From an uncultured delta proteobacterium (GTDB lineage: Bacteria; Desulfobacterota; Binatia; Bin18), in contig CAVTCR010000017.1 in the NCBI GenBank assembly GCA_963733195.1, positions 32,001 through 96,000 of the forward strand: 64,000 nucleotides of DNA, given 5' to 3'. Every line of letters starts with the position of its first letter. The stretch's first letter is position 1. Both the position numbers and the translations under genes were made by a program. The notes beneath the pieces are model-generated. The model saw nothing but the letters and a program-made list of their open reading frames with translations. It was not told where the DNA came from and did no database searches. Positions 4,375 to 20,009 of the stretch are shown piece by piece.

Positions 4375-4880
4375 ATGGGTGGCAGGAACAGGAACGATGT
4401 CCAGCGTATTAATGACTCAGTGTGGTATAAGGATGCTATCTATGAACTGCATGTGAGGGCATTCTACGATAGCGGTGCCAATGGAGTTGGCAACTTTCGT
4501 GGGTTAACACAAAAACTGGATTACCTGCACGACCTCGGGGTCACGGCGCTGTGGCCCATGCCCTTTTGCCCGTCTCCACTCAAAGATGATGGCTACGACA
4601 TGGCGGATTACACTGATATCCATCCGCTGTACGAGGGTGACAAGGAGAATATCGATGCAATTGAGTTTATGCGTCGCTTCAATACCGAGGTGTATCACCA
4701 TTATCCTGATGTGCAGACGACCGCTGAAGAATCGACCTCCTGGGCTATGGTGTCACGACCGACGTACGTCGGCGGACTCGGTTTTGCATGAAGTGGGACA
4801 TGGGCTGGATGCACGATACCTTGTCGTATCTGGCAGAAGACCGCAATCTACCGAAAATATCGTCACAGTGAGTTAACTTC
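4375..4880 (+). pseudogene. Chimeric remnant: TreS N-terminus fused to an internal GlgB fragment
   Basis: [17 protein letters not shown]...SPLKDDGYD (TreS) then [13 protein letters not shown]...[21 protein letters not shown] and, after a frameshift, [12 protein letters not shown] (GlgB). Confidence 0.8.
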
Positions 4881-8570: not shown

Positions 8571-8614
8571 TTGACTTCATTTCAAGCGTGACTTATGTAG
8601 TCAAATTAGACTAC
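8571..8614 (+). promoter_or_regulatory. Putative sigma70 promoter overlapped by an inverted-repeat operator
   Basis: TTGACT (8571-76), 17 nt, TATGTA (8594-99); GTAGTC-N6-GACTAC inverted repeat at 8597-8614 just upstream of the PadR gene. Confidence 0.55.
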
Positions 8615-8632: not shown

Positions 8633-9223
8633 GTGAGCGTTCAACTCGTCATCCTTGGTCTACTTTCGGAAAAGCCACGCCACGGCTACGAACTTCGTCA
8701 AGAAGTCGAACGCCGACTCTACGCGACCTACATGAACCTCAGTGGGGGTTCGCTTTATTACAACCTCGGGCGGTTAGAACGAGCCGGGTATGTTGAGAAA
8801 ACCCGTGTTGAGCAGAACGGTCGTTACCCTGCCCGCCGAATCTATCAGATCACTCCAGACGGAGCTGTCCATTTCCGTACCGAACTGCGGAAACTTTTAT
8901 TTGACGTCGAGGGGCGAGAAAAGGTATTTGACCCTTTTAATACCGCACTCGCCTTTGGCCATTTTGTTGATGAAGAGGAACTTCGCGAAGCGGTGACCGC
9001 GCAGCTCAAATGGGCGCAAGAACGTGTGGCGTGGATTCGTACGCAGCAGGAGTTCTGGCAATCTCAGGAAATCTCCTTTGCACAGGGAAAAATTATCGAA
9101 CATGGGCTGGCACACTATGAAGCAGAAATTCGCTGGTTGCAGCACTTTCTGCGTGACCTTGATGTCCGTGAAATGAAGGCACTGAAGCAAGAGCCCAGAG
9201 CCAGCGTCTCTAAAATAAAATAG
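8633..9223 (+). CDS. PadR-family transcriptional regulator
   Basis: ILGLLSEKPRHGYEL, GSLYYNLGRLERAGYV, RRIYQITPDG; start set to GTG 8633. Confidence 0.92.
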   Translation: MSVQLVILGLLSEKPRHGYELRQEVERRLYATYMNLSGGSLYYNLGRLERAGYVEKTRVEQNGRYPARRIYQITPDGAVHFRTELRKLLFDVEGREKVFDPFNTALAFGHFVDEEELREAVTAQLKWAQERVAWIRTQQEFWQSQEISFAQGKIIEHGLAHYEAEIRWLQHFLRDLDVREMKALKQEPRASVSKIK

Positions 9224-9257
9224 AAGAGCAAATTTGTCTTAATAGGAGGAACTCATT

Positions 9258-9911
9258 GTGGAAGGTCAACAAGGATTAAGCGTACTCGATATGATTCAAC
9301 AGGGGTGGTACATCACCTACCCCTTAATCGTGATTTCGATCATCACTATCACGGTGATTTGTGAGCGACTCTGGGCGCTCCGGGGGCTAATCGGTGGCAC
9401 TCTGCGTGTCGCAGGAGGGTTAGTCGGTAGATTGCAAAAGGGCGATTTCAAGGGGGCACTGACGTCGGCACAGCAGGACAAGACCGCGCCTGCCGCGCGA
9501 ATCTTCCGCGATGTCATTTCTCAGCAAGACGGGGAATCGCTTGAGTATCTTTCCGAGATCGTCGAAGACCGTCGGTTTGAGGAGATCGATGCCCTTAAAG
9601 GAGCGATTTGGATTCTCGGCACTGTCGCGGTGAGCGCCCCGTTTATCGGGCTGTTGGGAACCGTAGTTGGTATCATTAAGTCATTCCACAGCATGTCGGT
9701 CACTGGCAGTGGCGGGTTCACCGTGGTTGCTGGTGGTATCTCGGAAGCGTTGATCGCCACCGCCCTGGGGTTGGCCGTCGCCATCATCGCGGTCATTTTT
9801 TACAACTACTTTCAGACCAAGCTCGAACGCATTGAGTCAGCGATGACGATCGCGTCTGACCGCGTGCTGGAAGCGATTCGCATGGGGAGGAAAGCTCATG
9901 GGAATGTCTAG
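9258..9911 (+). CDS. MotA/TolQ/ExbB proton channel subunit (copy 1)
   Basis: APFIGLLGTVVGII, GGISEALIATALGLAVAI. Confidence 0.93.
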   Translation: MEGQQGLSVLDMIQQGWYITYPLIVISIITITVICERLWALRGLIGGTLRVAGGLVGRLQKGDFKGALTSAQQDKTAPAARIFRDVISQQDGESLEYLSEIVEDRRFEEIDALKGAIWILGTVAVSAPFIGLLGTVVGIIKSFHSMSVTGSGGFTVVAGGISEALIATALGLAVAIIAVIFYNYFQTKLERIESAMTIASDRVLEAIRMGRKAHGNV

Positions 9912-10320
9912 CCCACGCAAGAAAAAAGGCAGCAGTTCGGCCATCATGGCCGAGATTAACATCACCCCGCTGACTGACGTCTTCTTGGTGCTGTTGATTA
10001 TTTTCATGGTTACCAGCGTGGCTATGGTGCAGTCGGGCGCCAACATCAATCTGCCAGAGGTGGAAGAGACCAAGTCAGAACCTCGACAGATTGTGATTAC
10101 CGTCACACCCAAGAAAGAAGTGTTCATCAACAACACCCCAGTATCGCTGGCCGACCTGGAAGGATTCCTCCGTCCTCTGATTCTGGCGCAACCAGACATC
10201 CCGGTTGTATTAGAGGGGGATAAGGAGGTGTTGATGGGAGACGCAGTGCAAATTCTTGCCGTCGCCCAAAGAGCTGGGGCAAAAACTATCGCGGTTGCTT
10301 CTGAAAAAAGGTCAAGTTGA
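9898..10320 (+). CDS. ExbD/TolR subunit (copy 1)
   Basis: EINITPLTDVFLVLLIIFMV with conserved TM Asp; INLP; LEGDK. Confidence 0.93.
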   Translation: MGMSSPRKKKGSSSAIMAEINITPLTDVFLVLLIIFMVTSVAMVQSGANINLPEVEETKSEPRQIVITVTPKKEVFINNTPVSLADLEGFLRPLILAQPDIPVVLEGDKEVLMGDAVQILAVAQRAGAKTIAVASEKRSS

Positions 10321-10354
10321 TGCCTGCAATGTCAGAGGGAAAAACAGGTGACCT

Positions 10355-11659
10355 ATGGCTGAAGAACGAAAAAAATCACCGGCACTGACCTCCATTCAAC
10401 AAGAGCTGCAAGAGGACATGTGGCTGTACCGCGGACAGCGAGTAGGGAAAAATGCCCGCTGGTTTGCTCTCTCTGCCGTTGCCCATGTGTTACTCCTCGG
10501 ACTCTTCGCCACGGTCTCGATGACGATCGCGCATAAACGCCAAGAGCTGGTGAAACTCGCGAAAGTCCAAGACCTGGCGCCTTCACTCGAAGAGCTGGAA
10601 CGGATGAGGAAGGCGCAAGCTGAGGAGAAAAAGCCTGAAGACTGGGAAGGTGAGCCTTCACTCAAAGACCTGCCAGGCGTGTTAACCATGGAGCAGTTGG
10701 CGCCGAAGAAAGCCTCGACGCCGGCTGGGCCGCCGCCGGAAGTGGGTAACGTCCAAGCCGTTCGTGCGCCGGTTATTCCAGTCGCGCCTCCACCGCCAAC
10801 AGCGAGATCACTTCCAGTAATTGAAGGACTAGGGCCGGGTGTCATTCAAGTAAACAACAACGGACGTGATGGTGCTGGCCAGCTCTCTAATCTTAATGCC
10901 ATCGGTGCGATCGGAGGAGCAATGGGCGGCCTCGGTGGTGCCGGTGGAGATTATGTTGGTGGGCTGCGCAAAGTCGGGCTTGATGTGGCTCTGGTGATCG
11001 ACGCGACCGACAGTATGCAGTTCGTGGCGGATTCGCTTAAATCTCGACTGCTCAAACTTATCGCTTCTCTCCACAAGATGGTGCCGACCACACGGATCGG
11101 TATCGTTGCGTATCGCGACAAGGGTGAAGAGTATGTCACCAAATGGGTCGATCTCAGCTTCTCGACCAGCAAGCTGCAAGATTTCGTCTCGAACCTACAA
11201 GCTGGGGGTGGTGGGGATTGGCCGGAAGCTGTGTTTGATGGACTCGAAGCCGCAGTCAATGATCTTAAATGGCGTAAAAATTCCAAGCGCGTCATCGTAC
11301 TTGTGGCAGGTTCGCCTCCGCATCCAGACAGCGTGGGCAACGTACTCGGGCTAGTGCAAAATTTTCAGGCCCAGGGTGGGATGGTGAGTGTTCTGGATAT
11401 GGCTGACAAAATGCACGAAGATTTCGAGCGTGCCATCTATAGAACCAGCTCGCAGCTGATCGCAAGTGAGTTCAAAGTCTCCCCGCTACCGGCATTTTAC
11501 CAGGAGTTCCGTAACACTATGTCGTCAATTGCTAAAGCTGGGGGCGGAGAATTCATCCCGCTCACTGAGGATAAAGCGCTGACGAAGCAGATTATCGTCA
11601 TGACGTTTGGCTCACGCTGGCAGACGGAGATGGCGAAGTGGCTGCGTGATTTGGAATAA
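10355..11659 (+). CDS. Membrane-anchored protein: TonB-like TM, Pro/Gly-rich linker, C-terminal vWA domain
   Basis: TM SAVAHVLLLGLFATVS; PAGPPP...APPPPT linker; vWA DVALVIDATDSM, GIVAYRD, GGGGDWPEAV. Confidence 0.85.
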   Translation: MAEERKKSPALTSIQQELQEDMWLYRGQRVGKNARWFALSAVAHVLLLGLFATVSMTIAHKRQELVKLAKVQDLAPSLEELERMRKAQAEEKKPEDWEGEPSLKDLPGVLTMEQLAPKKASTPAGPPPEVGNVQAVRAPVIPVAPPPPTARSLPVIEGLGPGVIQVNNNGRDGAGQLSNLNAIGAIGGAMGGLGGAGGDYVGGLRKVGLDVALVIDATDSMQFVADSLKSRLLKLIASLHKMVPTTRIGIVAYRDKGEEYVTKWVDLSFSTSKLQDFVSNLQAGGGGDWPEAVFDGLEAAVNDLKWRKNSKRVIVLVAGSPPHPDSVGNVLGLVQNFQAQGGMVSVLDMADKMHEDFERAIYRTSSQLIASEFKVSPLPAFYQEFRNTMSSIAKAGGGEFIPLTEDKALTKQIIVMTFGSRWQTEMAKWLRDLE

Positions 11660-11692
11660 GAGAAAAGCAACCGCGAGTGGTCACGGTGCGGT

Positions 11693-11721
11693 GTAGGGGC
11701 AGGTCTGCAACCTGCCCCTAC
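11693..11721. repeat. GTAG-type REP-like palindrome
   Basis: GTAGGGGCAGGT-ctgca-ACCTGCCCCTAC, perfect 12-bp stem in an intergenic spacer. Confidence 0.7.
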
Positions 11722-11773
11722 CCTTCTATAAAGAGCGTGTGACAGGGCCAGAGTTTCGACAAGGAGAGTCGAA

Positions 11774-14192
11774 GTGCAACTGTTGGTGATTTTTTCCTTT
11801 CTCTGTTCACTGGTAGGGATCGTCTCGTTTCCGCAGACGAGCACCGCGGAAACCGTCGCAAGCTTGTTAGGACAAGCCCGCCAAGCCAGCGCGCAAGTAC
11901 GCGGGCTTAAAAACGGCAGTACCAGCGACAAGCAACAAGCGATTCAGATTCTCGGGCCGATTGCACTCAGTCTCGTTGGTGCTTCTGATCTTGCCTCGGC
12001 AGCGCAATCACAACGGGGAACAGTGCGAGAGGTCTACGAAACACTGAACGGCCCACTCGAAGACATTTACGAGGCTGCCTTTGCTGATATCAACCGGATG
12101 AGCAAGCGTGTCATGGATATCGATGGTGATCTTGAAGCCCTCTACGAAACCAGAGAATGGAAAGACGCTCAGCTTGTCGCTTCACAATCCCTCTATTTTC
12201 TCAATTGGTTGCGGTATATCGGTTCTTATGTCGTTGACGGCGGAAAACGAAAAGAACTGCTGCAGAAAGCTGCCGATGGATTCTCTGAATTTGCCGTTGG
12301 CCAACAGGGTTCGCAACTCAAACGTGAGAGTCTCTTTGGTCGTGCATTAGCAGAAAAGGACTTGCGACAATTTGATTGGGCGATTCGTGATTTTGAGTTG
12401 CTCTTGCAGGAGCCCAACCTGCCTAACGACATGGAACGCAAGGTGCGTGCGAGTCTCGCCGACGCCAAGGCTAGAAAAGCACGCGGGGGGAATCAGAAGG
12501 ACGATGATAGTAATGCCCCAGCGCCGCCGACCCCTGAAGACATTGCTAAAGCGTACTTAGACAAAGCAAGAAGTTTATTCGAACGTCGCCGCAAAGAAAC
12601 TGGGGCGACACGGGAGAAGACCCTTCTCGAAGCACTCGCGTATGCTGAGGAGGCGAAAAAGAAAAGCGACAAACTCAAAGGCCCTGCGGATGCATTGATA
12701 AAGGAAGAGCTGACTCCTGAAGAAACCGCTATGCTTGAGGAGGAACGGAATCCGTTTCCCCAGTGGAAGGAAGCGACCGAACTCTTACGCGCGAACAACT
12801 ATGCGCAAGCGGTTCCTCTTCTCAAAGAGGTAGTAGCGTCGGGCGACCCACGAGCCACTGCCCATCGTCGGGATGCCCTGTATTTTCTCAGTGCCGGTCT
12901 TTTCCAGCAGGGCGAATATCGCCAAACGATCGAGCGTGTTGATGAATTCTTTGGCAATGACGGTGCTCCGGCACGCTACGGTGCTGATGCGGCGTATCTG
13001 CGTTTCAAAGCTGCTGAGAAAATCTATTCTAGTAGCAAACCGCCGACCGAAGAGAATACCAAACTCTATGTGACAACGACAAAAGACTTTATCCGTCGCT
13101 ATCCGACGCACAAATCGATCTTTGAGGCGTACTTTCGTCTCGGCGAGTACGAACAGAGCAAGGAAAACTACCTGGGAGCGGTGGACTACTATCAAAAAGT
13201 GACAGGTGATGTACCGTTCCGTGTACGGGCAGACTACGCGTCTTTGCAGAGCTATTCTGCGCTCCAAGAAGCGATTGATGAGAAGAAGCCAGTTCCTATT
13301 GCCGAGAAAGATTTGCGATCGCGGATCGGGGCGAGCTTGCAATCGTTCTGGAAGAACCTTGCTGTCCTCGATCAAAACCCCGCCCAAGCACAGCAGATCA
13401 AGGACCTCAAAGAATGGCGCGGAAAAGCAACCTTCATGAACGCCGTTTATCTTGGCAAGGATATGGACGCGAACGCGACTGCGCTTGTGTCCTTGTTACA
13501 AGATTTTGAGAAAAAATATCCTGAACAGAAAGATGCCTTTGAGTCAGTTGCACGTACACGTCTTATTGTTCTGCAAAAGACGGGACGGTACGCTGAACTA
13601 GAGAAGGAAACAGAGCGAATTTTTGCGACCTACAACGGCGAACAGCAGCAGGAGTTGGTAAAAGGACTGAATCAGGTACTGACTTCAGACATCAAACGAT
13701 TGGAAAAGGGCGGCGACAAGGAGAAAGACAATGTACTCGTTGCCAAGCGTACCTTAGCACGATTGCATGCCGAACGTCTCAGACGTGGCGATGCCTTTGG
13801 GCCAGAGGAGTCTCCAGAGCAATTCAAGTATGATTTGGCTCAACTCTATCTTGACATTAAAGACTACGACAAGGCCGAGGCGATCTACCAAGAACTACGA
13901 CAAGGTGCATACTCTCTCGCGGCACTGGCCGGATTGGCACAGATCGCCGATGTGAAAGGGGATACAAATCAATCTTTCGCCTTATGGAGTGACTTACTCA
14001 AAGAGGCAAAACCGGACGAACCTGCATGGTTTCGTGGCACCTATGGCGTTGCTCAACTCCAAGCCAAGCAAGGTAACAAAGAGCAATCGTGCAAAACTAT
14101 TAGTGAGGCATTTGTGCAGGATTAGCCAACTGAGAGACGCCGGTCTGAAAAAACGGATTCAAGAGCTATCGTTGCAGAGTTGTAAGAAGTGA
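11774..14192 (+). CDS. Large exported TPR/alpha-solenoid protein (frameshift near 14110)
   Basis: Signal peptide; TPR-like segments (ALYFLSAGLFQQGEY, AYFRLGEYEQSKENY, KYDLAQLYLDIKDY); C-terminus continues in the frame ending at 14192. Confidence 0.8.
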
Positions 14193-14310
14193 GTGCGTAA
14201 AACGTGATACGTAAGACATCGAGAACCGGGAGGAGTGGTTACGTTTTACGCATTTTCTAGTCGGTAAACGCTCTTTCCCTCTTCCACAGACTCCTATAAA
14301 TATAGCGCCT

Positions 14311-14973
14311 ATGTCAACAGAACCAATCTCCGGGGGATTGTGGTTTTTCATTGTCAAAGGCGGACCGGTGATGATTCCCATCATCATCCTGTCAATTGTT
14401 GCGCTCACGATCATCTTCGCAAAATTCTGGGAACTCTGGCGGTTTCGCCTTCGTCTCAACAACTTAACGAATAAACTCTACAATCTTGTACAAGATGGTA
14501 ATATCTCTGGCGCACTCAAGGCTAGTCGCGAGGATGCAACAGCACTGGGACGTGTATTTGAGAGTGCAATTGTCCATCGCACGCAAGAGCGCTCTGAGTT
14601 GACACGCCGGTTGGAGCGGTTTGGTGGTGATGTGGTCGCTGACCTGGAATCGTATATGGGTGCGCTTGCTACCATCATCGGCGTTGAACCGATGCTGGGT
14701 TTTCTCGGCACTATCGTTGGCCTCATTAAGGCGTTTATGAATTGGGAAACGATGGGTGATCGTATTACCATCAACCTATTAGCTGGTGGTATCTATGAGG
14801 CAATGATCACTACGGCCGCAGGGCTTATTGTCGCCATTCCTTACTATCTGATTTACAACCACTTAGTTACGAAAGTCGGTAAGCTTACGCGGCTGACCGA
14901 AGAGCGGACGGAAGAGTTTGTTGATTTGGTCACAGACATGAATGTCAAGGAGCCGGTTCGTCATGCGCTTTAA
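14311..14973 (+). CDS. MotA/TolQ/ExbB proton channel subunit (copy 2)
   Basis: KGGPVMIPIIILS, PMLGFLGTIVGLI, GGIYEAMITTAAGLIVAIP. Confidence 0.93.
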   Translation: MSTEPISGGLWFFIVKGGPVMIPIIILSIVALTIIFAKFWELWRFRLRLNNLTNKLYNLVQDGNISGALKASREDATALGRVFESAIVHRTQERSELTRRLERFGGDVVADLESYMGALATIIGVEPMLGFLGTIVGLIKAFMNWETMGDRITINLLAGGIYEAMITTAAGLIVAIPYYLIYNHLVTKVGKLTRLTEERTEEFVDLVTDMNVKEPVRHAL

Positions 14974-15382
14974 ACGGCAGAGTAAGCTCATGTTCAGTAT
15001 GGAGTCAGTGGCGATCACTGACATCATCATGAACATGTTCATCTTCTTCTTCATCACTTTCAGTTTTCTTGCCTCGTTCAATAAATCAAGAGAGGGCCAA
15101 GTCGATGTGAACCTGCCGAAAGCGACCTCGGCCTCTCCGCCGATCGAGCGCAAGAGCCTCACAGTGAGTCTAACCAAAGAGGGAGGTCTCTTTCTCAACG
15201 ACGCGCCAATTTCCCTTGAGCAGCTCAAAACTCGCATGCAAGAAGAAAAAGGCCAAGCTGTAGAAGTAACGCTTGTGGTGCGAGCCGATAAAGAAGTCCA
15301 GCATGGTCGCGTCGTCGAGGTCATGGACATCGCTCGTAACGAAGGACTCAATCGCCTGGCCATCGGGGCGCAAGCGCGATAG
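14963..15382 (+). CDS. ExbD/TolR subunit (copy 2)
   Basis: AITDIIMNMFIFFFIT with TM Asp, VNLPKA, VVRADKEVQHGRVVEVMD; start ATG 14963. Confidence 0.92.
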   Translation: MRFKRQSKLMFSMESVAITDIIMNMFIFFFITFSFLASFNKSREGQVDVNLPKATSASPPIERKSLTVSLTKEGGLFLNDAPISLEQLKTRMQEEKGQAVEVTLVVRADKEVQHGRVVEVMDIARNEGLNRLAIGAQAR

Positions 15383-15470: not shown

Positions 15471-16379
15471 ATGCAAACTGCGTGGCAACAACAGAACCTT
15501 ACTGCTATTACTCACCGTCTTGCCGCTGTGAAACGACTACCGGCTGGCATCCTCTTTGAGCGTAAGTCGCAGTACAATCACATCATCGTCCGTAAGACCT
15601 CAGAGCAACTCTTACTTTGTTATCGTCACGAGCGGCATCGTACTGAGGAAGTGGAATCGCGGCTTGATCCGGAGAATCCGCTCGCGTTACTGTCGGATTA
15701 CACACAAGCCATGCTGTTGGCGTTGGCGTGGCAATCCGCACCGCAACGGGTTCTATTACTAGGACTTGGTGGTGGCCGTTTGCAGATGGTGCTGCATCAT
15801 TACCTCGAACACCTCGAACTCTACACCGTAGAACTCGATCCTCTGGTTGTCGAAGTAGCTCAACGTTTCTTTGCCTGGGAAACGGACCCACGCCAGCATC
15901 TGACGGTGAAAGACGGACGTGATTATCTGCGCGGGTTTCCTACTGAAGCACCATATGATGTGATTCTGCTTGATGCCTTTCAAGTGAGCGGTATTCCCGT
16001 GCATCTGTGCACACGCGAGTTTTTTGCTGAGTGTCGTGAGAATCTTACTCCAGAGGGGATCGTTGCAACCAATCTCCACATCTCCACCTCGATTTACGAT
16101 TCAATCCGTAAAACTTTTGCAGCAGCGTTTCGTTCGACCACTGCGTTTCGTTTGCTCGGCGGCAATGTGGTGGTAGTTGGTAGCGAAGCCGAGCGATTAA
16201 CATTACCAGAGATTCGCGAGCGCATAGCCGCCGTGCAAGAGCGGTACGGATTTAATTTTGCCTTGCCCGAACTCGCGCGCCGCGAAGCTTCCGGTGCGTC
16301 CTATCGTCAGAGTGCGCCGATCTTGCGTGATGCGTATACGCCAATGGGGGAAATGCCTCCTCCGACTACGCGACGGTAA
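15471..16379 (+). CDS. Spermidine synthase-like SAM-dependent transferase
   Basis: SQYNHI, VLLLGLGGG, VELDPLVVEVAQRFF, DGRDYL, YDVILLDAF. Confidence 0.85.
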   Translation: MQTAWQQQNLTAITHRLAAVKRLPAGILFERKSQYNHIIVRKTSEQLLLCYRHERHRTEEVESRLDPENPLALLSDYTQAMLLALAWQSAPQRVLLLGLGGGRLQMVLHHYLEHLELYTVELDPLVVEVAQRFFAWETDPRQHLTVKDGRDYLRGFPTEAPYDVILLDAFQVSGIPVHLCTREFFAECRENLTPEGIVATNLHISTSIYDSIRKTFAAAFRSTTAFRLLGGNVVVVGSEAERLTLPEIRERIAAVQERYGFNFALPELARREASGASYRQSAPILRDAYTPMGEMPPPTTRR

Positions 16380-16403: not shown

Positions 16404-18114
16404 TTACTCCCCACCCTTTGCCAACACCTCTACTACTGGCACCGGTTTCTCTTTGCCCTTGACCGCCATTGTCGCTGTCCGTCCGAGCGTGAATTCTGGG
16501 CCGAGATGCGAGGCGGTCACTTCCGAAATGACAATCGTCGTTTGCAGCTCTTTGGTAAGCCCTTCAATCCGACTTGCCAAGTTCACCGGATCACCTATTA
16601 CTGAATATTCGACACGTTTGTCTGGACCAATCAGTCCAGCAACGACTTCACCAGTGTGAATACCGACGCCAATGCGGAGGACAGGGAAATCCTGTTCTTG
16701 TAACCGAACGTTGAGCGATCTAAGCCGTTCTACCATCCCTAATGCCGCTCGTACTGCTCGTGCAGGACTATCAGGGTACTCGTTTGGTGCACCAAAGAGT
16801 GCCATCACACCGTCACCTGTAAATTGATTGACGACCCCACCTTCGGCCTCGACGGCTGCGACCATCTCGGTGAAAAACTGATTGAGCATACGGACCAATA
16901 TGGCCGGATCAGTCCGCTCACTAATGGTGGTGAACCCACGAATATCCTGGAAAAGAATACTTATCTCACGACGTTCGCCAGCCAGGGGCACGTGTCCACT
17001 GAGTACAGCGTTCGCAATATCCTGTGAGACAAACCGACCGAAGGTGTCTTTGATCTTCTCTCGTTCTTCGAGTCCGCTGACCATCTCGTTGAATGAGGCA
17101 CCAAGAAACCCGATTTCATCTTGTCGTTTGACTGCAATTCGCTGGTTGAAGTTGCCCTGGAGCACTTGCTGCATACTTTGTACTAAGGTCTGAATCGGTG
17201 CGGTAATTCCGCTGGTAAGCCCACCGCCAAGCACTAATGCGCCAAGCAGCGCCGCAAGCCCGACTCCGGCGATTCGCCACCGTAGGCCGGCTAACGGTGC
17301 AAGCGCGGCGTCGTACGAACGCTGCACCAGTGCGTAGAGCGGTGAAGGAAGCTGCGATTGAATCGGGACCAGCAGAGACAAGAAACGCTCCCCCTTCAAG
17401 CTGAGCAAAAAAGTCTGGTCTGGTGGGTGCTGGAAAATCTCCGCTGTGGGCCGCTGACCCGGTGTCAGAAGTTGTCGTTCGGTCGGTGGCCACGATGAGG
17501 AAAACAGTCGCTCTTGAGTAAGAAACGACACTTCAGACCCAGTCTGTTCTTTCAGTTGTTGCACAGTAATATCACCGATGCTCGTACCTAACAGGAGGAA
17601 GCCGATCACTCTGGGAGCGAGGATAGGTACGACCATGAACTGATAGAGGGCAGCGTCGACTTCGATGACCAGGACCACAGGTGAAGCGGCAGCAAATGCC
17701 TCTTCGAATGCCGGGAAGAATGGCGAGTTCTTTGCCACTGACGAACTTGCCGCTTGAGTCAGCAAACAGCACTCCAGTTTCATCGGTAATCCAGAGTACG
17801 TCTCCACCTGTGCGGTCACGATAATTCTGCGCGACAGAGAGGAGTGTCAAAGAATCCCGCGTCGCAAACGCCTTTTTGAGTGCAAAGTCAGAAGCTAACA
17901 ATTCTGCTTTTTCGAGCAGGTGTTCGGCGCGCCCTTTCATGGCGCGTCGAAACACTTGATCGGTGACTTGCAGCTCGCGCGTGAGGATTGATTGAACCTG
18001 GCGACTCACCATCAGTTGGGTGAGCCACAGAGTGAGAACCAACAACAAGAGGATCAGCGCTGAGAAGGCAAGAAAAATCTTCGTGCGTATCCGACTACGG
18101 GCCCACCATGTCAT
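16404..18114 (-). CDS. Class III adenylate/guanylate cyclase with periplasmic Cache-like and HAMP domains (frameshift near 17715)
   Basis: Joins ORFs 17572-18114 and 16404-17819; RQDEIGFLGASFNEM (HAMP), ILFQDIRGFT, FTGDGVMALFGAP, GDPVNLASRIE. Confidence 0.88.
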
Positions 18115-18788
18115 CGAGACCCTCGTTGCCCACTGATCGCAGGACGTTCCTGCGCCGGTTTCAAGCTGAGAGTAAAGGTTAGCTCGGGTGTGGCTTCATC
18201 GATCCGTATTTGTTGGGTGGTGTCTGCTATTTTGCCGCGACTACGCTCATGCCACGACACCAGGGAATAGGTACCGGGTGGTATGTCAGGCAGGACAAAC
18301 CGGCCGTTTGCATCTGTGGTCGCATAATAGGGAGACGGAACGACCAGAATAACGGCTGACATCCAATCATGGATGTTGCAGCCGACATCGACGACGCCGG
18401 GTTGATCAAAGGCAACGGATGGCTTTGCCTCGCCTTTGTAAAGCGGGAGGTCGAAGCTCTTAGCGCGAGAGAAAGAGTATACATGATGGTGAATCTGATC
18501 ATGATTTGGGAACTGGACCTCGGTCCCAACAGGTATTGGCAGAAGATTTGGGACAAATTGTTTATCTATTTGATCCAGGGTCGCTGTGCGATGAGCTGCT
18601 GGTTTTGCTCCGCCCGATGCTGGGGTCTGAACAAAGACGACGGCCTGAGGAATGCCGGTTCCTTGCTCGTCAACGACCTTGCCTTTTACTTCTGCAGCTT
18701 GGGTAACAGAGACACAACTCATGAACACAGCAACAACAATGATGGTCCACTGCCAGCGCGACGTCCAAGATATAACAAACTGTTCCAT
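18111..18788 (-). CDS. Exported cupredoxin-like/carboxypeptidase-regulatory-like protein
   Basis: Signal peptide; FPNHDQIHHHVYSFS, GCNIHDWMSA, GTYSLVSWH. Confidence 0.8.
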   Translation of the reverse strand: MEQFVISWTSRWQWTIIVVAVFMSCVSVTQAAEVKGKVVDEQGTGIPQAVVFVQTPASGGAKPAAHRTATLDQIDKQFVPNLLPIPVGTEVQFPNHDQIHHHVYSFSRAKSFDLPLYKGEAKPSVAFDQPGVVDVGCNIHDWMSAVILVVPSPYYATTDANGRFVLPDIPPGTYSLVSWHERSRGKIADTTQQIRIDEATPELTFTLSLKPAQERPAISGQRGSR

Positions 18789-18790
18789 AA

Positions 18791-20009
18791 TTAATAGCGA
18801 AAGCGGTAACTTAGTTGCCAGCCGCCATCGGACGGATCAAAGCGAACCGGCATCGTCCGGTGACTATCAATAAACATATACTCGAAACCGACTCTATGGG
18901 AGAGACCAAACTCAAACAAATATGCCACGGTGAATGCGTCACCGTTTTCACGATACGACGGTGGACCATCAGTATCATCCGTGCGAAAGTTATCGTAGCG
19001 CACGCTCAATCGATGTCCTTGATAGTGGACAGAAAGAAGTACATAAAAGGCATGGAGCAGCACATCACAATTGCTGGCGCGACTCTGAGCGCTGCCTCCG
19101 AGATACTGGGCAAGAAGATCGATATTCGCCAACGGATGGAGGACCGCACCGACAGTACCGAAGCGCGTGCTCCATACTCCGAATGTGTCTTGATCGCCAA
19201 GATTGTCAAAGTAGCCGAGACTCAGCTCTCCTCGGTTGCGAGAGTCGCTCACGCTGAAGCGAGTATACAATGCTGGTCGATAATCGCGCTCGTCAAAAAC
19301 CGATACGGGGTCTGTGTTACCGCCGTGTGCGTGTGGGAGATCGTTGTTCACACCGCTTTGGTAATCACTCAACACCCAGCCACGCGGTACGAGTAAGCGG
19401 GCCATCTGGTCCGGGCCAAAACCTGCTCCCGCGAGCACTCCGAAACGTAAGCCAGACAGTGTCGTTCGCCACCACTCTCCTTCTAGACCAACCACGTACA
19501 CTTCTTCCCACAACCACGTATTGAGTGCAGAAGGTGTGAGGGTGTACTGCGGAGTCCATGCTGGCCCCACATGCTCAAGGGAGAAGGGATTATTCATCAC
19601 TCCAGCCTGGAGCCCCCACCCTTTAGCTGGGACTCCCCACTCTTTGCGGAGAATCGCCTCAATCAACAAAGGGCGGTCAACATCAATATCAGTTTCAGCA
19701 TTGAGTTGTGCACGGGCGCTGATACCCCAGGGCAGAGTTGCGCCTAGTTCTACCGAAAGCTGAGAGAATGCGAGGCGAGTTGAGCGTTCCCCGTCCTGAA
19801 GAGAACCTGTTCCTCCATAGCGACTTTTACCGATGCCCATCCCTTGATCTGTCCAACTTGAGGCGCGGCCGCTGCGAGCGATACGGACATCCACAAGGCC
19901 GCGAACCCAGACTGGCCACTTCTCTTCAACATCGTATTGTCCCCAACTCACGGCTGGGACAGTACACCACAACAACAGTGACTGAGACGTAGCAGACGCA
20001 GCGGATCAT
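18791..20009 (-). CDS. Putative outer-membrane beta-barrel protein (probable frameshift in signal peptide)
   Basis: Amphipathic beta pattern, C-terminal WQLSYRFRY; ATG 20009 is out of frame with ORF 18791-19975. Confidence 0.7.

Follow-up and report, generated by a model that had tools for sequence, protein, structure and literature searches.

The stator family of ExbB and ExbD is shared by Ton (ExbB5-ExbD2-TonB), Tol-Pal (TolQ5-TolR2-TolA, with TolB, Pal and CpoB) and the Agl-Glt gliding machinery of Myxococcus, which is described as joining a TolQR-like stator and a TolA-like arm to periplasmic tetratricopeptide repeat (TPR) proteins and an adhesin of von Willebrand factor A (vWA) type carried as an outer-surface lipoprotein (PMC11761067). 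Structure prediction has added inner-membrane-tethered vWA 'force transducers' of unknown function (Williams-Jones et al. 2025, PMC12204202). Here we describe a locus at positions 8633 to 15382 of a 64,000-nucleotide stretch of DNA (the window; contig CAVTCR010000017.1, assembly GCA_963733195.1) from an uncultured bacterium of the class Binatia, whose genome is 93% complete and is labelled G000, its contigs being C1, C6, C9, C18 and so on. The locus holds a four-gene cassette, ExbB1-ExbD1-vWA-TPR. New here are a Binatia variant of the predicted class and a link to DUF1329/LolA-like proteins; the class itself had already been proposed in PMC12204202, so that 'novel', as a preliminary description of this DNA called the system, was too strong. 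The string 'binat' has no match in the main text and one supplement file of PMC12204202, the terms 'TonB' and 'gliding' are absent from the Binatota survey PMC8262859, and among the literature matches listed no paper treats this Binatia locus or joins DUF1329 to an ExbB/TolQ motor.

The seven co-oriented plus-strand genes with two divergent ExbB/ExbD pairs that had been read from the window are all present (Pfam), with 31% identity between ExbB1 and ExbB2 and 23–24% between ExbD1 and ExbD2. Four of them form the core: ExbB1 (9258..9911; PF01618, E 1.6e-32), a stator subunit that would be pentameric, in a 5:2 complex, by homology; ExbD1 (9898..10320; PF02472), the axle subunit with pore Asp27; the predicted vWA force transducer (10355..11659; Pfam VWA families, motifs and fold); and an exported all-helical TPR-like solenoid (11774..14192, with an assembled open reading frame (ORF) of 11774-14125; alignment and structure prediction). 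Outside this core stand the accessory stator subunit ExbB2, of a separate lineage (14311..14973; synteny and trees), and the accessory ExbD2, a 139-aa protein with a divergent transmembrane (TM) motif that keeps the pore Asp (14963..15382; alignment). Relatives of the vWA protein come nearly all from Binatia, and of the 182 GTDB loci to which the vWA alignment led we surveyed the best 80, 34 of them classed as far. The order ExbB1-ExbD1-vWA-TPR recurs at all 80 loci bar four truncated by contig ends, with ExbD1 adjoining the vWA gene in 79. The second pair lies directly after the TPR gene in only 12 loci and 3–5 kb off in 17; it is absent from 36, a score given only where there was at least 1.5 kb of room, and the remaining 15 are uninformative. 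None of the 25 informative far loci has it, and the 34 far loci share no further conserved gene cluster beside the cassette. What is conserved is thus a unit of four genes, ExbB1-ExbD1-vWA-TPR, and not the seven proposed earlier: synteny holds for the core and not for the second pair. A TonB-dependent receptor gene occurs in one of the 80 loci and a TonB C-terminus in none; neither a Pal-like nor an OmpA gene is a conserved neighbour. A receptor hidden between TPR and ExbB2 was considered and rejected, the inserted gene being a molybdopterin oxidoreductase in both loci checked.

The vWA protein has the layout of a force transducer. Its single TM helix (residues 34-52) carries S40 in 98 of 99 sequences, H44 in 99/99, F/L51 in 96/99 and S/T55 in 72/99, a spacing equal to that of the SHLS motif (S-x3-H) of TonB and TolA. 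There follows a linker (~94-195) devoid of secondary structure and mostly below pLDDT 50, with 17 Pro and 19 Gly in residues 61-200. The head (~200-433) finds its best fold match in BatB (3ibs; Z 19.6, rmsd 2.9 A, 178 residues aligned), integrin beta I domains are among the near-tied rows of the fold search, and the Pfam Integrin_beta family scores over its cut-off. Metal-site motifs DxTxS and GGGDxPE are present, with D216, S220 and E291 invariant, T/S218 in 99/99, and D255 and D288 in 98/99; the DxTxS...GGGDxPE pattern matches the one that integrin beta I domains have at their metal ion-dependent adhesion site and the site next to it. A sequence search of solved structures with the vWA profile gave no match, and a plasmid search gave 14 partial matches, none reaching 80% coverage. 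Look-alike clusters in the Atlas, from Planctomycetota and Verrucomicrobiota (score 0.90-0.94), are no more than a lead on homology to the Tichowtungia family.

As described in PMC12204202, the predicted class shares with the locus an SHLS-type TM motif, a disordered linker of ~100 residues, a C-terminal vWA domain and adjacent TPR and tolQ-like/tolR-like genes. The locus departs from that description in having one core ExbD rather than paired tolR genes, the order ExbB-ExbD-vWA-TPR, the addition in one family of a second, unrelated stator, an ExbB without Trp38/Pro190 and the DUF1329/LolA-like link; tandem ExbD pairs occur only in family f9, genome G029 and some distant loci. The second family outlined in that paper, TPH-vWA, has an Asp-bearing trans-pore helix and no exbD/tolR nearby, unlike the locus, where the TM helix has His and no Asp and ExbD1 is adjacent. 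With Ton the cassette shares the stator family, the pore Asp/Thr, the S-x3-H helix and a long linker; unlike in Ton, a vWA head replaces TonB_C (none on the vWA protein by Pfam) and receptor linkage is rare. With Tol-Pal it shares the stator family, the transducer layout and a periplasmic TPR protein in the operon, differing as a four-gene cassette without TolB or Pal, for which the window was not searched by family; a tolQRAB-pal-cpoB operon lies elsewhere in G000 on contig C1, and the TolQ/TolR equivalog test gave 103 and 101 bits for TIGR02796 against a cut-off of 221. Agl-Glt, as far as PMC11761067 describes it, has in common a 5:2 stator, a TolA-like arm acting on a periplasmic TPR protein and a vWA component, and differs in having at least 17 genes against four here and its vWA part as a surface adhesin rather than on an inner-membrane arm. 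The features tested place the locus outside Ton, Tol-Pal, TPH-vWA and Agl-Glt, as these are presented in the material drawn on (PMC11761067, PMC12965293). The absence of a receptor and of TonB_C from the window, reported earlier, agrees with a whole-genome family search that puts the two receptor matches on C18 and C71 and the TonB_C matches on C1 and C56; by the same kind of search, G000 has no canonical TonB.

The stator proteins bear out the claim of a system distinct from Ton and Tol-Pal. ExbB1 and ExbD1 cluster with other vWA-linked stators (support 97/93 in the ExbB tree, 99 in the ExbD tree) and ExbB1 falls outside the TolQ clade, so the first pair forms a clade of its own; ExbB2 belongs to a separate clade nearer Ton-locus and stand-alone ExbBs and groups with a Ton-locus ExbB (92/86). 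Residues required for proton flow are retained in both pairs: the pore Asp, also reported earlier, is kept in 78/78 ExbD1 and 23/23 ExbD2, as are the equivalents of Thr148/Thr181 (77/77 ExbB1; 28/28 and 27/27 ExbB2). ExbB1 further keeps the equivalents of Ser34 (76/76), Pro141 and Glu176, and lacks those of Trp38 (Trp in 0/76) and Pro190 (I/V/L in 77/77); ExbB2 keeps the Ser and Pro equivalents and not that of Trp38. According to PMC12215075, Ser16/His20 of TonB contact Ser34/Trp38 of ExbB, Trp38 contacts Pro190, and Trp38/Pro190 relay TonB/TolA signals and matter for activity.

The TPR protein is predicted to be an all-helical solenoid (pLDDT 92.6) with a signal peptide, judged by hydropathy and alignment. 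The exported protein of ~800 aa noted earlier is thus present, at ~805 aa in relatives, except that the assembled ORF ends early through an extra base. A fold search returned only generic solenoids (TM-score at most 0.24), so that it has no specific structural relative, which is not proof of a new fold. Asp119 of a D-G-D motif (117/130) is a possible metal-site ligand; it may simply cap a helix.

We found that the vWA and TPR genes stay together while their stators change. In a phyletic profile of 251 genomes of the class, each with a completeness of at least 90%, vWA is found in 176 and TPR in 180, and all 176 vWA-positive genomes also have TPR; among the searched genomes both are missing from families f4 (0/22), f15 (0/21) and f17 (0/4), with 3/16 in f8. 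In family f9 the TPR gene has been relocated and no longer adjoins ExbB-ExbD-ExbD-vWA, yet both vWA and TPR are kept. There the TPR gene sits among glyoxalase-fold and HAD genes with its D-G-D motif altered, ExbD1 is tandemly duplicated (L035, L036, L141, L142), and some genomes have up to three vWA matches. In a distant lineage, 16 metagenome loci reached via a distant TPR group, 10 of the 16 (8 distinct) encode a vWA protein of this subfamily alongside ExbB and either one ExbD or two, S-x3-H being present in 8/8 of these vWA proteins; one other locus reads ExbD-ExbD-TPR and five begin inside TPR. The stators of these loci fall in three ExbB lineages (quick tree). vWA and TPR are kept even when unlinked, they occur with stators of different lineages, and ExbB1-ExbD1 relatives persist alone where both are lost; the arm and its TPR partner are therefore the constant module, and one stator can take the place of another. 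A complex model of the vWA head with TPR scored 0.41 against 0.00 for the best control, with contact agreement between runs of at least 43% and partner pLDDT of at least 67, and so the modelling proposed earlier lends weak support to their contact; the mark for such models was reached by 116/157 solved complexes and 2/215 mismatches, with 18 of the solved complexes and both mismatches passing at 0.60 or below. On one contig (L163:1-12490), two cassette copies with different stators flank a LolA-like lipoprotein gene.

Taken together, we consider it reasonably probable that the architecture is that of a proton stator, a vWA-tipped TonB-like arm and a periplasmic TPR protein. From homology and conserved pore residues, ExbB1 and ExbD1 would form a 5:2 proton-driven stator, on which the vWA protein would dock through its S-x3-H helix in the manner of TonB/TolA. 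The disordered linker would cross the periplasm, the metal-dependent vWA head would grip the exported TPR solenoid, and motor cycling would pull on or remodel the vWA-TPR complex. ExbB2-ExbD2 would be a separate motor that settled beside the cassette in one family, probably serving another arm.

The task of such a machine is suggested by its neighbours. In the 13 informative distant loci the gene directly after TPR encodes a LolA-like lipoprotein in 8, a MORN-repeat protein in 4 and another protein in 1, often among choloylglycine-hydrolase-family genes. The LolA-like lipoproteins were the reason for profiling DUF1329, which is a LolA/LolB-like family. At least three DUF1329 matches occur in all 180 TPR-positive genomes, and at most two in 56 of the 71 TPR-negative ones; co-loss of DUF1329 and cassette recurs within families, in f14 (G229, G249) and in f9 (G108 and two further zeros). 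A control expansion, of luciferase-like monooxygenases, is kept in those 56 negatives (median 45 candidates, range 13-83). The dependence is one-way: carriers can exist without the motor, but wherever the motor was found there were many carriers too. G000 itself has 24 DUF1329 and 11 DUF1302 matches, the Binatia DUF1329 copies being a divergent expansion. Among the systems described, the DUF1302/DUF1329/BNR/RND envelope system, an outer-membrane barrel with a LolB/LolA-like periplasmic protein linked to the use of fatty esters and to clusters for the catabolism of aromatics and steroids, is the candidate client. The DUF1302/DUF1329 pair is reported to be required on fatty esters in Pseudomonas (10.1101/072470; 10.1101/2020.07.04.188060), and DUF1302, a predicted 18-strand barrel, is modelled with DUF1329 in PMC13499233. 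DUF1329 fused to TPR repeats was also seen: one such gene lies upstream of the G025 cassette at a distance of ~2 kb (L029:2186-3685), and a lipoprotein-like DUF1329-TPR protein with an N-terminal TPR-like stretch, read by eye, is encoded at G000:C9:174855-176420.

From these genomic patterns we tentatively propose, at less than even odds, that the machine powers or resets periplasmic carriers of the LolA fold, by which lipophilic cargo is moved across the envelope. The carriers would be DUF1329 proteins working with DUF1302 barrels in Binatia and the LolA-like lipoprotein in the distant lineage, and force may reach them via TPR. A more specific version, which we regard as possible and rather doubtful, makes vWA-TPR the energiser of DUF1302/DUF1329 and a third output of ExbB/ExbD: an integrin-like metal-ion grip would replace TonB-box beta-strand addition, the Trp38/Pro190 relay would have been dropped, the proton motive force would drive carrier loading, unloading or recycling, and ~20 paralogous carriers would share one motor, much as many receptors share one TonB.

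A number of observations weigh against this proposal. Because ExbB1 has lost Trp38/Pro190, docking or gating must differ from that of Ton and Tol. Relatives of ExbB1-ExbD1 stand alone in genomes without vWA/TPR at 6 of 8 loci opened (with a quick tree), so the stator is not dedicated to them. On the client side, the DUF1329 threshold of three was set after the data had been seen, per-genome counts are lower bounds from ~7 upward, and at least three copies are found in 15 of the 71 negatives. Kin are not independent: the negatives lie in six families and represent perhaps about four losses. DUF1302 tracks the cassette less well (in f9, 25/46 detected against 41/46 for TPR); across ~100 loci, only 2 Binatia genomes have a DUF1329 gene close to the cassette; and the distant LolA-like protein matches the DUF1329 profile weakly (3 proteins, E 8e-8 to 5e-5). 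The cofitness reported for DUF1302/DUF1329 is with BNR and RND genes, with no motor (10.1101/072470; 10.1101/2020.07.04.188060).

The same machine might instead serve outer-membrane upkeep or division as a second Tol-like system, with TPR as a CpoB/BamD-type scaffold. Its mostly single copy, apparently vertical inheritance and retention in genomes of 2.0-2.2 Mb (f13, 3/3) would suit such a role, as would a weak match of TPR to YbgF/CpoB (E 3e-8, far below cut-off). We nonetheless think it unlikely: the genome has its tol-pal operon elsewhere, the whole families f4, f15 and f17 live without the system, and it has no Pal-like or OmpA conserved neighbour.

Somewhat less likely still is that both ExbB/ExbD pairs are general Ton-type energisers of orphan TonB/TolA-like proteins, with vWA-TPR a passive scaffold or sensor. 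The persistence of ExbB1-ExbD1 relatives where vWA/TPR are gone, and the grouping of ExbB2 with a Ton-locus ExbB, speak for it; so does G002, a 100% complete genome in which 8 receptor matches and an orphan TonB stand beside no more than TolQ, ExbB1 and ExbB2. G000 also has an orphan S-x3-H TolA-like protein on C63, of 467 aa (G000:C63:41098-42501; L173:8102-9502, minus strand), with a Pro-rich linker, a weak TonB_2 match (E 0.009) and no motor genes nearby, which is a candidate arm for ExbB2-ExbD2. On the other side, the invariant TM His of vWA and its adjacency to three ExbB/ExbD lineages make sense only if the stator is engaged, and the system does not track receptors: cassette presence does not follow receptor number, G031 having 20 receptor matches and neither vWA nor TPR. 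For ExbB2-ExbD2 taken separately, the general-energiser explanation may well be true. An orphan tonB, flanked by genes for a NicO-like transporter and for nickel insertion (LarC), was seen at L133:4057-6851, L135:3496-6237 and L137:3704-6475 (assigned by Pfam on L133, and by size and similarity in L135 and L137); tblastn did not find this type in G000.

The preliminary description had further suggested a seven-gene machine with a heteromeric motor, ExbB1/ExbB2 or ExbD1/ExbD2, which we judge very unlikely. ExbB2-ExbD2 does lie within ~8 kb downstream of vWA in 29 of the 80 loci with its pore residues kept, related cassettes do have two different ExbDs (f9, G029 and distant loci), and the same is described for PVC loci (PMC12204202) and AglRQS (PMC11761067). 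Beyond its absence from the informative far loci, however, the orthologue of the second pair stands alone in G025, on a separate contig, and searches of G011 and G016 did not find it. ExbB1 and ExbB2 as one clade were rejected by the approximately unbiased test (p=0.0099; three long rows, E. coli ExbB, G017 TtpC and G029, left out), the second ExbD of f9 is a duplicate of ExbD1 and not ExbD2 (tree), and ExbD2 is always accompanied by its own ExbB. Given its displacement or absence and its separate lineage, the second pair is a lodger and not a duplicate of the first: a family-level add-on of separate lineage.

A surface-adhesion or gliding motor akin to Agl-Glt, an analogy of the preliminary description that PMC12204202 also raises as a speculation for its class, is hardly credible here, for although Agl-Glt shares stator, arm, TPR and vWA part types (PMC11761067) and G000 has three proteins with an AgmX/PglI C-terminal domain, none of the eight proteins of the locus matches a gliding family (NCBIfam), the GltG model has 0/1 over its cut-off in G000, the AgmX-domain genes have no motor neighbours, the Agl-Glt vWA lies on the outer surface whereas this one is anchored in the inner membrane, and there is no conserved outer-membrane neighbour. 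The AgmX/PglI-domain proteins over cut-off are encoded at C65:16317-16580, C56:196764-197018 and C6:57192-57449 of G000, and one over cut-off is present in 17 of 41 relatives; as partners of ExbB2-ExbD2 they were rejected, lacking motor neighbours and having been missed by the S-x3-H scan.

Around the cassette, a PadR regulator gene with a Vir_act_alpha_C domain (8633..9223, plus strand; Pfam, start set from relatives) stands upstream, preceded by a candidate PadR operator (8598..8613, no strand; comparison of upstream regions), a TAGT-N8-ACTA dyad beside a -35/-10-like promoter that is strict in 10 of 13 compared upstream regions and a near-match in the other 3. PadR accompanies the cassette in the two closest families alone, being present in near loci and in 0/34 far loci; in these families it probably regulates the cassette via the dyad, the putative operator. 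Downstream, an eighth co-oriented gene encodes a spermidine-synthase-like methyltransferase (15471..16379, plus strand; Pfam and synteny), a family-level neighbour that remains at the locus across the family even without ExbB2-ExbD2. A promoter and terminator scan was at chance level (6 vs 5.1 expected; 14 vs 9.0), and contigs of RNA run X18 covering parts of the operon were rejected as proof of transcription.

The TPR ORF ends ~22 codons early, with the conserved C-terminal helix and Cys in another frame running to a stop at 14190-14192. Close relatives' contigs in 3 of the 4 sequencing runs compared have one base fewer at 14116-14118, and other genes of the same assembly are similarly split; the premature stop is therefore probably one extra base, an assembly error. 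A third, TolQ-like exbB (G000 C62:181317-182490) is frameshift-broken near a transposase, tolR and tolA of the tol-pal operon (G000 C1:58529-60289) are each split, and so are many DUF1302 genes, which suggests indel errors in the assembly. On the minus strand at 16404-19975 of the window we read by eye genes for a putative outer-membrane protein, a cupredoxin-like secreted protein and a HAMP adenylate cyclase, the last apparently frameshift-split (17572-18114 and 16404-17819). Also by eye, short trehalose synthase-like and branching enzyme-like fragments at 4375-4876 are probably a deletion remnant.

The vWA force-transducer class has so far been without a known target or task, and this locus is a minimal four-gene version of it. 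The natural loss of Trp38/Pro190 tests a current model of TonB/TolA motor gating. It is the candidate client, and not a double or heteromeric motor, that is worth following: the phyletic profile and the order of genes point separately to the DUF1329/LolA-like link, which, if true, would account for an orphan motor class as well as for an envelope system that is widespread and uncharacterised.

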